From positions 32,914 to 96,913 of the IMG/VR virus record IMGVR_UViG_3300020049_010034: a DNA stretch of 64,000 bases; one strand, written 5' to 3'. Numbering within the stretch: the stretch's first letter is position 1; each line of letters begins with the position of its first letter. Position numbers and translations under genes: made by a program. This DNA is from a virus (Duplodnaviria > Caudoviricetes). This document shows, in pieces, positions 30,224-37,671 of the stretch. Below the pieces are notes generated by a model. That model was not told the DNA's origin. It saw only the letters and a list, made by a program, of their open reading frames with translations, and did no database searches.

Positions 30224-30302
30224 GGCCTCGTAGCTCAGAGGTAGAGCGTTGCAAGCTAAGCTCTTGCAAAGGTCACTTGTTCGAATCAAGTCGAGGCTGC
30301 CA
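30224..30302 (+). tRNA. tRNA-like gene with extended (7 bp) anticodon stem, identity undetermined
   Basis: GGCCTCG/CGAGGCT acceptor, G73, encoded CCA; D arm GCTC-AGAGGTA-GAGC; T arm ACTTG-TTCGAAT-CAAGT; anticodon arm TTGCAAG-CTAAGCT-CTTGCAA. Confidence 0.8.
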
Positions 30303-34854: not shown

Positions 34855-35171
34855 AGGCTGAATTAGAATCAATTCTTGCGAAACTGAAGACGGACACCGA
34901 ACACGTCTTAAAAATGTGCCAAGACAAGGCGATCGAAAATACCAAGCTTAAGCTAGAGATCATGGCTTTGCAGCTTGAAAACGAGCGGCTAAAAAATATG
35001 CCGAGTATGTATCACGCCACAAAGGTTGTTGAGCTTCAACTGGAGATAGACAACTTAAAGGACGATATCGAAAACGCTTACAACTACTTAAAAGCAATCT
35101 ATGGCGATCTGGAAGGCTGCGAACCAGAGAAACAAATCATCGAGTCTTTTCGAAAGGTTTTGTATGCCTAA
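34851..35171 (+). CDS. coiled-coil hypothetical protein
   Basis: ATGA overlap, AAGG SD. Confidence 0.65.
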   Translation: MKAELESILAKLKTDTEHVLKMCQDKAIENTKLKLEIMALQLENERLKNMPSMYHATKVVELQLEIDNLKDDIENAYNYLKAIYGDLEGCEPEKQIIESFRKVLYA

Positions 35172-35569: not shown

Positions 35570-35798
35570 CGCAACGATCGAAAGAAATTACAGAGTTTTT
35601 TACGATTTAGCTGATTCAGATGAGGCCGTAGAGGCTTTTGGTCAGTATTATCTGGACGATTATGGATATAAGCTTCCCGTGGATTTGATCGAACGGTACA
35701 AGGCCGCTCAGGAAACGTGGAAAGCTGTTCAGAGGGAGTTAAAAGCTATCTATGAGGATATGACTGGTCAGTACCGAAATGCGAAAGCTGACTGGTAG
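35562..35798 (+). CDS. hypothetical protein
   Basis: AAGG SD, overlap coupling. Confidence 0.6.
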   Translation: MNNATIERNYRVFYDLADSDEAVEAFGQYYLDDYGYKLPVDLIERYKAAQETWKAVQRELKAIYEDMTGQYRNAKADW

Positions 35799-35808
35799 AA
35801 ATAAAACT

Positions 35809-35838
35809 TTCCCATTTCCGAAAAAAAGATGATATATT
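35809..35838 (+). promoter_or_regulatory. extended -10 promoter for the tRNA-Gly/ncRNA unit
   Basis: TTCCCA (35809-14), TG-A-TATATT (35830-38); 6 nt separate the -10 from tRNA G1. Confidence 0.55.
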
Positions 35839-35844
35839 AATTAT

Positions 35845-35920
35845 GCGGTGGAGGTATCAAGACCTGATACGCTGGTCGTCCAGATCAGAGGGCAAGGTGC
35901 AATTCCTTGACACCGCTCCA
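35845..35920 (+). tRNA. atypical tRNA-Gly(TCC), predicted non-proteinogenic
   Basis: 76 nt cloverleaf: GCGGTG/CACCGC acceptor with G7.A66 mismatch, U73, CCA; 6-bp D stem GTATCA/TGATAC; anticodon arm CTGGT-CGTCCAG-ATCAG; T arm CAAGG-TGCAATT-CCTTG. Confidence 0.85.
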
Positions 35921-35925
35921 AAATT

Positions 35926-36112
35926 TTCCAGAAGCTTAGCGGCTTCAAGTACGCGTGACGGCGCGATGGGTAGGTAACCCCATTGAGAAAAGACTCGCCA
36001 AACTGTAGGCGTTAATTGTAGTAGAGAGTGAACGCATCTATAATGCGTTCAATGCTTGACTGCGGGCAATACTCGCAGCGGTTGGAACTAGCCTATTAGT
36101 TCGGTTTTGGAA
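35926..36112 (+). ncRNA. candidate multi-branched structured ncRNA
   Basis: No ORF; closing stem TTCCAGAA/TTTTGGAA, inner TCAAGTA/TGCTTGA, hairpins CGCG/CGCG, ATGGG/CCCAT, CGCC/GGCG, TGAACGCAT/ATGCGTTCA, CTGCGGG/CTCGCAG, GAACTA/TAGTTC. Confidence 0.6.
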
Positions 36113-36209
36113 CTAAAGTTTTCTTTAAAACGGTCTGATGTGAAACCGAGTCAGTTAGGTTGCGACGGCAGCTTCGGTTTATTTTAAAAACGCTATTAAA
36201 AAGGAAGCC

Positions 36210-36407
36210 GTGAAGAAAAGCGAAATGCTCGGAAAACTGTGGACTTTGTTATACAAGGAAACTGATTATTACGAAGAAGACCTAAAAGAGCTTTGTGAGC
36301 AGATCCTTGGCGTTTTAGAGCATGAAGGAATGCAGCCGCCAGCCCGCTTCATAGACGACGGAGACTTGGGATCCAAATATTCAAACGAATGGGAAAAAGA
36401 AGACTAA
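36210..36407 (+). CDS. hypothetical protein
   Basis: AAGGA SD; MKKSEM...LE.EGM.PP...WEKE pattern. Confidence 0.65.
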   Translation: MKKSEMLGKLWTLLYKETDYYEEDLKELCEQILGVLEHEGMQPPARFIDDGDLGSKYSNEWEKED

Positions 36408-36427
36408 GGTTTTGAAAAAGGTATAGT

Positions 36428-36742
36428 ATGCAGGATAAAGTGATAAGAGACGGAAAAGTGGCGGTTTTATATTCACCGGGTTTTGGGGCTGGGTGGTTTT
36501 CATCGAACAATGATGAGCGCCTTTTGTTTGATCCTATTTTGGTTAAATTAGTTGAGGAAGGTAAGGGTTCTACAGAAGAATTTGAGCAAAGATGTAAGGA
36601 ACTCAATCCAGCAGCTTATCTTGGTGCAGCGGACGATTTAGAAATCAAATGGGTGCCACAAGGGACTAGATTTGAAATTGATGAGTATGATGGTAGTGAG
36701 AATGTTAGATACTTATCGCCAGATGACGGGATTATTGCGTGA
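36428..36742 (+). CDS. conserved phage hypothetical protein
   Basis: GKVAVLYSPGFGAGW...L.I.WVP.GTRF.I.EYDGSE pattern. Confidence 0.75.
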   Translation: MQDKVIRDGKVAVLYSPGFGAGWFSSNNDERLLFDPILVKLVEEGKGSTEEFEQRCKELNPAAYLGAADDLEIKWVPQGTRFEIDEYDGSENVRYLSPDDGIIA

Positions 36743-36755
36743 ACACCGCGAAATT

Positions 36756-36802
36756 TATACGCAAACGCGTATAAACGCAAACCTATACGCAAACGCGTAT
36801 AA
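36756..36802. repeat. tandem palindromic direct repeat TATACGCAAACGCGTATAA x2
   Basis: Exact 19-nt copies at 36756-36774 and 36784-36802. Confidence 0.9.
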
Positions 36803-36872
36803 GATAGCTTGATGTCGCTACAAGCATTTGAATTAACATTATTGTTAATTCGAACGAATAATAAAGATCCTG

Positions 36873-37596: not shown

Positions 37597-37671
37597 TGCG
37601 GAATGGTGGAGTGGTTACCATGCGAGCCTCATAAGCTTGAGACGCAGATTCGATTTCTGCTTCCGCTTCCA
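37597..37671 (+). tRNA. tRNA-Met(CAT), initiator-like acceptor stem
   Basis: TGCGGAA/TTCCGCT with a 1.72 mismatch; CGAGC-CTCATAA-GCTTG; GCAGA-TTCGATT-TCTGC; encoded CCA. Confidence 0.9.

Follow-up and report, generated by a model that had tools for sequence, protein, structure and literature searches.

A tRNA-Gly-like RNA upstream of a Mom gene

We analysed a 64-kb stretch of DNA (hereafter the window) from a virus of the Caudoviricetes, part of a 96.9-kb IMG/VR record (IMGVR_UViG_3300020049_010034) judged to be approximately 60% complete. The subject is a 76-nt RNA encoded at 35845–35920, which resembles tRNA-Gly(UCC) and in which many universally conserved nucleotides are changed (table 1). 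No genes are called in the 411-nt gap around it, which is bounded by the end of a 78-codon open reading frame (ORF) at 35798 and by the next ORF, at 36210. The −10 element of a promoter-like site ends 6 nt before the first base (G1) of the RNA, and transcription may start at or next to G1; taken alone the site is weak evidence, with 7 promoter-like sites in the region compared with 4.2 in shuffled sequences. The RNA probably shares its transcript with the ORF-free trailer that follows, for which there was no Rfam match and no homologue among the loci examined. We treated a 44-codon ORF running over the RNA (35843–35977) as a chance occurrence: it has no visible ribosome-binding site, and its phase differs from that of the mom overlap in the sister clade described below.

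The record has a single Mom gene, on the same strand as the RNA and starting 1769 nt downstream of it; four small ORFs and a tRNA-Met gene separate the two. In the Mom product, R101 and S114 are shared without exception by 75 Mom homologues and correspond in alignment to the catalytic residues R111 and S124 in phage Mu Mom; these are the residues named in the Mu Mom study (PMC13219725), aligned with an inferred numbering offset of chain 8bv8. This Mom is the presumed user of the glycylated RNA. No FemAB gene (PF02388) was found in the 97-kb record, itself approximately 60% complete, and no candidate enzyme other than Mom was identified near the RNA.

Table 1. Features at the locus, in window coordinates.
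Feature	Position	Strand	Description or basis
Promoter-like site	35809–35838	+	TTCCCA-18 nt-TATATT, TG before −10; consensus scan, 9/12 matches
Aberrant tRNA-Gly(UCC)-like RNA, 76 nt	35845–35920	+	Sequence; minimum-free-energy cloverleaf
Acceptor stem	35845–35851 / 35910–35916	+	GCGGUGG/ACACCGC; sole mismatch G7·A66 (6/7 pairs)
D hairpin	35854–35870	+	GUAUCA-AGACC-UGAUAC; 6 bp, 5-nt loop without GG
Anticodon arm	35872–35888	+	CUGGU-CGUCCAG-AUCAG; UCC at 35879–35881, G33 at 35878
T arm	35893–35909	+	CAAGG-UGCAAUU-CCUUG
U73; encoded CCA	35917; 35918–35920	+	
ORF-free 3′ trailer with several stable hairpins	35921–36184	+	No ORF at 35799–36209 in public gene calls of identical contigs
Terminator-like hairpin with T-rich tail	36157–36174	+	End of trailer
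tRNA-Met(CAU), canonical-looking	37597–37671	+	ARAGORN; Rfam tRNA 57.2 bits; 17 nt upstream of mom start codon
Mom-family GNAT gene, 265 aa	37689–38486	+	Pfam PF25680, 74.4 bits (cut-off 27.1); PHROG 'Mom-like DNA modification protein'

The RNA keeps glycine identity and departs from the translational consensus

Inspection of the RNA, with positions given in standard tRNA numbering throughout, bore out the description in an earlier sequence-only reading: A8, a 6-bp D stem closing a 5-nt loop without GG, G33, a possible C32–G38 pair, the T loop UGCAAUU, T-stem pairs C49–G65, A50–U64 and A51–U63, the G7·A66 mismatch, pairing helices and an encoded CCA are all in the sequence. The anticodon loop carries C32, G33, A37 and G38, and pairing of C32 with G38 would close it to 5 nt. 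The T stem is a plain 5-bp helix ending in G53–C61, and its loop opens with U54, G55, C56, A57 and A58; G9, G26 and a 4-nt variable region (AGGG) complete the core. From the conserved tertiary and decoding set the RNA thus departs through A8, C14, the absence of G18G19, G33 and G55, while it retains U54, C56, A58 and G53–C61. The identity set of bacterial glycyl-tRNA synthetase (GlyRS) is complete (G1–C72, C2–G71, U73, C35 and C36), and G3–C70 and G10 are also present. Minimum-free-energy folding gives the cloverleaf with a 6-bp anticodon stem (−28.7 kcal/mol, z −1.8), a stability that 11 of 200 shuffled sequences equalled.

As had been expected, standard finders missed the RNA. ARAGORN did not call it at default settings and did so only at -ps90, where the 97-kb record yields seven calls. 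The Rfam tRNA model RF00005 gave no match at the gathering threshold, nor at E ≤ 10 on a 3.5-kb or a 126-nt stretch. Among 1110 relaxed ARAGORN calls (-ps75, approximately 0.7 Mb of phage DNA), a glycine anticodon together with GCG...CGC-U-CCA occurred only in this element and its identical copies. The element is not a chance occurrence, and this unique combination indicates that it descends from tRNA-Gly. Both other tRNAs of the phage have normal GG and UUCGA elbows according to ARAGORN, so the deviation is specific to this RNA.

The phage has no close relatives by DNA in the phage GenBank collection. The best identity of its A1-like protein was 34%, and neither this protein nor the 78-aa protein encoded upstream of the RNA led to relatives among viral contigs, the latter being found only on six near-identical contigs. 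The intergenic region with the RNA was 100% identical in near-identical contigs from three other samples, and an exact 21-mer from the T arm and acceptor had no further match in viral contigs. Since there were no close relatives and the intergenic copies were identical, comparison and covariation of orthologues were impossible, and we searched for the design of the RNA instead. In one strain variant, L067, 448 bp of the interval from the RNA to mom are missing (36414–36861), including a 104-codon ORF (36428–36742), which indicates that the spacer is plastic. The flanks also differ from the window by a cluster of substitutions at 34919–35004.

RNAs of this design adjoin Mom genes

We searched viral contigs for tRNA-Gly(UCC) with G55, using the pattern GCG..UCC..UGYRA..CGCUCCA, which matched at least 119 loci; most of the matches listed had intact acceptor and T stems. 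A Mom gene was present in 17 of the 119 loci listed, and in 16 of these it lay immediately adjacent to the RNA on the same strand. Pfam confirmed the adjacent ORFs as Mom (E 1e-30 to 1e-51). A control pattern with the canonical UUCRA T loop found Mom in only one of 119 loci listed, 2.3 kb away (equal total length; p 8e-5). Position 8 also divided the distinct G55 sequences listed: Mom was adjacent to 10 A8 sequences and not to 2, compared with 1 and 51 for U8 (p 5e-9), and one of the two A8 sequences without an adjacent Mom ends 358 nt from the end of its contig. RNAs with the deviations seen in the window adjoin Mom genes in many independent contigs. At one such locus (L076:7077–8963, in an 86-kb record) a tandem duplication has produced the order RNA, Mom, identical RNA, second Mom, with two Pfam Mom matches of 133–143 bits.

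The linkage was also approached from the protein. A further 80 loci were chosen by Mom protein similarity alone, the query being an alignment of Mom proteins that adjoin such RNAs. A covariance model built from 14 Mom-linked RNAs (R1) matched an RNA in 67 of the 80, and a model built from the Mom-selected loci with the window excluded (R2) added seven, giving 74 of 80. In nearly all of these cases the RNA and mom shared a strand, with the RNA at the 3′ end of the gene. Standard finders recovered few of them: the Rfam tRNA model reached threshold for 1 of 20 and ARAGORN called 5 of 68. Within the largest Mom clade (L306–L385; for example L306:1368–1443, L343:1342–1417 and L338:2168–2243) the mom frame runs through the RNA and stops 0–40 nt past the CCA. 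Of 52 distinct cases, 43 had an open mom frame across the RNA; the other two frames were open in 46 of 104 (p 6e-6). Because the frame continues through the RNA, excising the RNA would leave the mom mRNA without a stop codon.

Applied to the 64-kb window, R2 gave 35845–35920 as its single match (52 bits, E 7.6e-11), a result that shows kinship with tRNA-Gly only, since canonical tRNA-Gly score alike. For the same reason R2 was rejected as a separator of the Mom-linked family from canonical tRNA-Gly. Overall identity was likewise rejected as a separator of Mom-linked from other G55 tRNA-Gly, as the nearest neighbours of the window RNA were mixed at 71–78%. Its proposed place in the Mom-linked kind rests on shared derived characters, namely A8/R9, a non-canonical elbow with G55, the 32–38 Watson–Crick pair and the dispensability of U33. 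The long D stem with a short GG-less loop recurs in L076, L149, L128 and L154, and the T loop UGCAAUU is identical in L149 and L038. The G7·A66 mismatch is also found in L076 and L149 (A7·G66 in L128), and C32–G38 with G33 is found in L119 and L038.

Selection maintains the synthetase determinants and frees the decoding positions

We then compared 62 distinct RNAs from the Mom-selected loci. G1–C72, C2–G71, U73, C35 and C36 were invariant in 62 of 62 (partly through ascertainment, as discussed below), G3–C70 was present in 53 and A8 in 46, and most members encoded the CCA. The invariant positions are those of the bacterial glycine identity set as defined experimentally (PMC9976931). Position 33, in contrast, was U in 23, G in 19, A in 13 and C in 5, whereas 105 of 106 canonical phage tRNA-Gly have U33 (p 8e-21), and position 34 was U, A or C. 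The 32–38 pair covaried and was Watson–Crick in 53 of 60, which gives a 5-nt loop.

The stems were maintained by compensation. Changes on both sides were seen for 17 of 22 stem pairs in alignment A1 and for 21 of 23 in alignment A3. In A3, 94.5% of cells paired, compared with 35–42% when partners were slid by 1–3 columns; over A1 and A3 together the figures were 88–95% and 35–47%. Invariant identity bases, drift at positions 33 and 34 and covarying stems together form the signature of an RNA selected for glycylation and not for decoding. The sequence-only reading had proposed that the changes were selected and not random decay, and that they converge on a non-proteinogenic design. The comparative data support both proposals: where unconstrained decay with loss of the GlyRS bases might have been found among homologues, the opposite was seen.

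Two structural variants were noted within the family. The hallmark of the largest clade is an A that bulges from the 3′ side of the T stem, and the T stem of the window RNA lacks this bulge, as do those of L076, L149, L128 and L154. Miniature members of 66–70 nt (L352, L334, L346, L359, L362, L342 and others in A3; L033:3873–3941) have a linker of about 10 nt, AAGCAGGCGA-like, in place of the D arm, and retain the acceptor identity bases, C35C36 and the T arm.

A proposed glycine carrier for Mom

Mu Mom transfers glycine from Gly-tRNAGly to the N6 of adenine in double-stranded DNA, and the product then rearranges to the carbamoylmethyl form (PMC13219725). The enzyme is selective for tRNA-Gly and probably reads its acceptor end (PMC13219725). 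Taking these data together with the linkage and selection described above, we consider it reasonably probable that the window RNA is a phage-encoded, non-decoding tRNA-Gly derivative that serves as a private glycine carrier feeding Mom.

A promoter of its own would drive the RNA, the transcript probably beginning with G1 or a neighbouring base, and the 3′ trailer would be trimmed back to the encoded CCA. Host GlyRS would then charge it, as the retention of G1–C72, C2–G71, U73, C35 and C36 suggests. By analogy with the non-proteogenic tRNA-Gly of staphylococci, the glycylated RNA would be a poor partner of EF-Tu and the ribosome and so be kept out of translation, since U8, G18G19, U33 and U55 are missing and the anticodon loop can be closed to 5 nt by C32–G38. 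The phage Mom would finally move the glycyl group to the N6 of adenine in double-stranded DNA, where rearrangement to N6-carbamoylmethyladenine would protect against restriction; this chemistry was shown for Mu Mom with host tRNA-Gly, and the use of the window RNA by the window Mom is our extension. The phage would benefit from a source of activated glycine that could serve thousands of modifications per genome without competing with protein synthesis or draining it.

The closest functional comparison is Mu Mom itself (Silva et al. 2026, PMC13219725; PDB 8bv8), which belongs to the same family (PF25680) and has the same invariant Arg and Ser as the window Mom. Gly-tRNAGly is its established co-substrate, and the acceptor end thought to be recognised is retained by the window RNA. 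Mu, however, has no tRNA of its own and uses host isoacceptors, whereas the window phage encodes the RNA and other phages pair Mom and RNA far more tightly. Neither the Mu Mom article (PMC13219725) nor its preprint mentions a tRNA gene next to mom homologues, and in the accessible literature we found no paper describing the pairing of Mom with a dedicated tRNA-Gly-like RNA.

On the side of the RNA, the best parallel is offered by S. aureus NP1–NP3 and S. epidermidis Ia/Ib (PMC7826273), which are likewise tRNA-Gly(UCC) with GCG...CGC-U-CCA. These staphylococcal cell-wall species also lack the D-loop GG and have UGC or UGU for UUC in the T loop, as the earlier reading had stated and as both the literature (PMC7826273) and the recovered staphylococcal genes confirmed. 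They serve the GNAT-fold enzymes FmhB, FemA and FemB, and the window RNA is proposed to serve the GNAT-fold Mom, in both cases outside translation. The two differ in that the staphylococcal RNAs are bacterial with a cell-wall Fem partner, whereas the window RNA is phage-encoded and its proposed partner modifies DNA. Staphylococcal species have U8 (s4U8) where the window has A8, and the window RNA additionally has G33, a 6-bp D stem with a 5-nt loop and G7·A66. The suggestion of an EF-Tu-weak T stem was borne out only in part: A51–U63 is common to both, but C49–G65 and A50–U64 of the window differ from the staphylococcal A49–U65 and U50–A64 (PMC7826273). The analogy is functional: apart from both being tRNA-Gly, nothing points to common descent.

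Canonical phage tRNA-Gly(UCC) of the RF00005 type have the cloverleaf, the UCC anticodon, the glycine identity bases and the CCA in common with the window RNA. They differ from it in keeping U8, G18G19, U33 and UUCRA, and they show no linkage to Mom. The 3′ tRNA-like structures of plant virus RNAs are mimics that are charged by host synthetases and are not used for decoding. Those structures are 3′-terminal in RNA genomes, have pseudoknotted acceptor arms and fulfil other roles, whereas the window RNA is a free-standing cloverleaf gene of a DNA phage; the RNA of the sister clade, being part of an mRNA, is reminiscent of them.

A broader proposal, which we put forward tentatively and hold to be somewhat doubtful, is that many phages run a two-part DNA-disguise system consisting of Mom and their own non-decoding, tRNA-Gly-derived carrier. 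The window would represent its free-standing form, with its own promoter, G1 as the first transcribed base (hence no RNase P step) and a 5-nt G33 loop. In the sister clade the carrier would occupy the last 75–90 nt or so of the mom frame, and its release would remove the stop codon, coupling enzyme level to carrier supply. A carrier of this kind would be the first virus-encoded tRNA dedicated to the modification of nucleic acid rather than to protein synthesis.

The use of glycyl-tRNA by Mom came to light only with a 2026 publication, whose authors took the enzyme to scavenge host tRNA. If the private-carrier reading is true, thousands of glycyl transfers per genome late in infection would run without starving the ribosome or being starved by it. 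The principle of the staphylococcal non-proteogenic tRNA would extend from the cell wall to viral DNA modification. Standard tRNA finders would then be missing a class of functional tRNA derivatives, as their low recovery of the Mom-selected RNAs suggests. The family would also provide a natural mutational map that separates what GlyRS, and perhaps Mom, needs from what only the ribosome needs, and the pair of carrier and enzyme could offer an orthogonal tool for enzymatic DNA labelling.

Observations that weigh against a private carrier, and alternative roles

Several observations weigh against the assignment of the window RNA to Mom. Canonical tRNA-Gly score 40–60 bits with R2, as high as the window RNA, and the subclass assignment of the latter consequently rests on few positions. 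The search pattern and the models favour RNAs that keep the identity bases, so that the invariance of these bases is partly ascertained, whereas the covariation of the stems and the drift of positions 33 and 34 are free of this effect. The window RNA forms a separate unit, with its own promoter-like and terminator-like sites, and does not adjoin mom; elsewhere the RNA mostly abuts or overlaps mom (0 to approximately 100 nt, same strand), compared with a gap of 1769 nt in the window. Among 63 loci with the Mom subfamily of the window, the RNA was adjacent to that Mom in only three (L003, L012 and L038), and in four more a second Mom paralogue carries the RNA. Mu Mom can use any of the three host isoacceptors (PMC13219725), which together with the three of 63 indicates that a private carrier is not required. 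Phage tRNA arrays often contain GG-less G55 tRNA-Gly(UCC) with U8 and U33, which are also common as lone tRNAs between T4-type replication genes, and Mom is absent from six phage records rated complete that hold U8/G55 tRNA-Gly. Finally, GGA is the commonest glycine codon of the phage (29%; GGR 47%), and a translational tRNA-Gly(UCC) would serve it too.

The 63 loci of the window's Mom subfamily share no synteny with the window. With relaxed ARAGORN settings, odd tRNA-Gly were not in excess at these loci, which appeared to speak against a link to Mom; this was set aside when an ARAGORN-independent descriptor and the covariance models found the three adjacent cases. In L033–L036 two Mom paralogues lie approximately 1.6 kb apart, the copy of the window subtype without an RNA and the copy of the L119 subtype with an RNA in its 3′ end. 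We rejected this arrangement as a precedent for a 2-kb gap between RNA and mom, because the second paralogue itself carries the RNA.

The evidence bears differently on the other roles that such an RNA could have. A non-decoding glycyl-RNA or tRNA mimic might serve something other than Mom, either another Gly-tRNA-dependent phage enzyme or, as a decoy, host toxins or nucleases directed at tRNA-Gly, such as GNAT toxins that read U73 and G71. Such a role would fit the G55 GG-less tRNA-Gly of complete phages without Mom, a group of G55 tRNA-Gly near a DruA-family (PF14236) gene and another, with the CGUCCAG loop, 18 nt before an unannotated 362-aa ORF, as well as the self-contained unit of the window and the recognition of U73 and G71 of tRNA-Gly by TacT (PMC9976931). 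We nevertheless regard it as unlikely, given that the window RNA is of the A8 subtype, which almost always adjoins Mom, that a Mom with intact catalytic residues lies nearby, and that the record holds neither FemAB nor another candidate enzyme near the RNA. That the RNA is an ordinary, if odd, translational tRNA-Gly(UCC) supplementing the reading of GGA and GGG seems quite unlikely to us. The codon usage would suit it, phages often carry tRNAs, which can be unusual, and this phage has two others. Those two keep canonical elbows, however, whereas the RNA lacks G18G19, U55 and U8 and obtains no score from the Rfam tRNA model. G33, set against the near-universal U33 of canonical phage tRNA-Gly, and a loop closed to 5 nt argue strongly against decoding, and related RNAs drift at 33 and 34 while fixing C35C36, the pattern of synthetase recognition.

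The structured, ORF-free trailer that ends in a terminator-like hairpin raises the alternative of a cis-acting element for structure, processing or stability, the RNA being the tRNA-like 5′ module of a non-coding unit of approximately 340 nt (35845–36184). In other phages the RNA is indeed part of the mom mRNA itself. Such a role would leave the invariance of U73, C35, C36 and the first two acceptor pairs, and the CCA of most members, unexplained, and we think it improbable. A decaying, functionless tRNA-Gly pseudogene could account for the rejection by standard finders and for the many changed nucleotides. Yet all four helices are intact, the lone mismatch recurs in relatives, the same deviations appear in dozens of divergent RNAs whose stems have changed in a compensatory way and whose identity bases are invariant, and the RNA stands behind a promoter-like site in an ORF-free gap. 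On the comparative data simple decay can be taken as excluded, and a pseudogene is hardly credible.

G55 tRNA-Gly outside Mom loci and other observations

The notion that a G55 tRNA-Gly always means Mom was rejected, since complete phage genomes hold U8/G55 tRNA-Gly without Mom. G55 alone thus does not imply Mom, and the wider G55 class must have other uses or still translate. In uncultured T4-like phages the sole detected tRNA of the locus is a tRNA-Gly(UCC) with U8, U33, G55 and no D-loop GG, placed among gp59, gp32, gp45 and gp44. It lies 94–97 nt before the gp32 gene in L078, L080, L096, L106, L110, L150 and others, and 29 nt before the gp45 clamp gene in L071, L084, L176 and others. No Mom was found in two long T4-type records searched, both incomplete.

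A second setting involves a DruA-family gene (L095:1484–2623, minus strand), approximately 1.1 kb downstream of which lies a G55 tRNA-Gly(UCC) (L095:261–335, minus strand), with an unannotated 339-aa ORF in between; the same group was seen in L083, L126, L130, L159, L160 and L168. In L086 (7897–7971, minus strand) and L131 (1168–1242, minus strand), a U8/G55 tRNA-Gly with the same CGUCCAG (G33) loop as the window precedes the 362-aa ORF mentioned above. This ORF had no Pfam match and no Mom was found in the locus; its product is a possible further user of Gly-tRNA.

Two further tRNA genes of the window deserve mention. The tRNA-Met(CAU) has a U1·U72 mismatch atop its acceptor stem. The tRNA at 30224–30302 (plus strand; Rfam 54.5 bits), labelled Leu(AAG) by ARAGORN, has a short variable region and G73, unlike bacterial tRNA-Leu.

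Among bacterial genomes, those of Staphylococcus and Macrococcus yielded the G55 type (there the known cell-wall species), as did Streptomyces and a scatter of other genomes. In one bacterial contig, presumably a prophage, an A8-type RNA lay inside a Mom gene. Streptomyces and other actinomycetes (L391, L418, L419, L426, L442, L461 and others) encode tRNA-Gly(UCC), sometimes in tandem, with the GG-less D loop CAGUAGUAG and the T loops UGCGAUU or UGCAAUU, and, as glycine is found in the peptidoglycan bridges of these bacteria, the tRNAs may be non-proteogenic like those of staphylococci.

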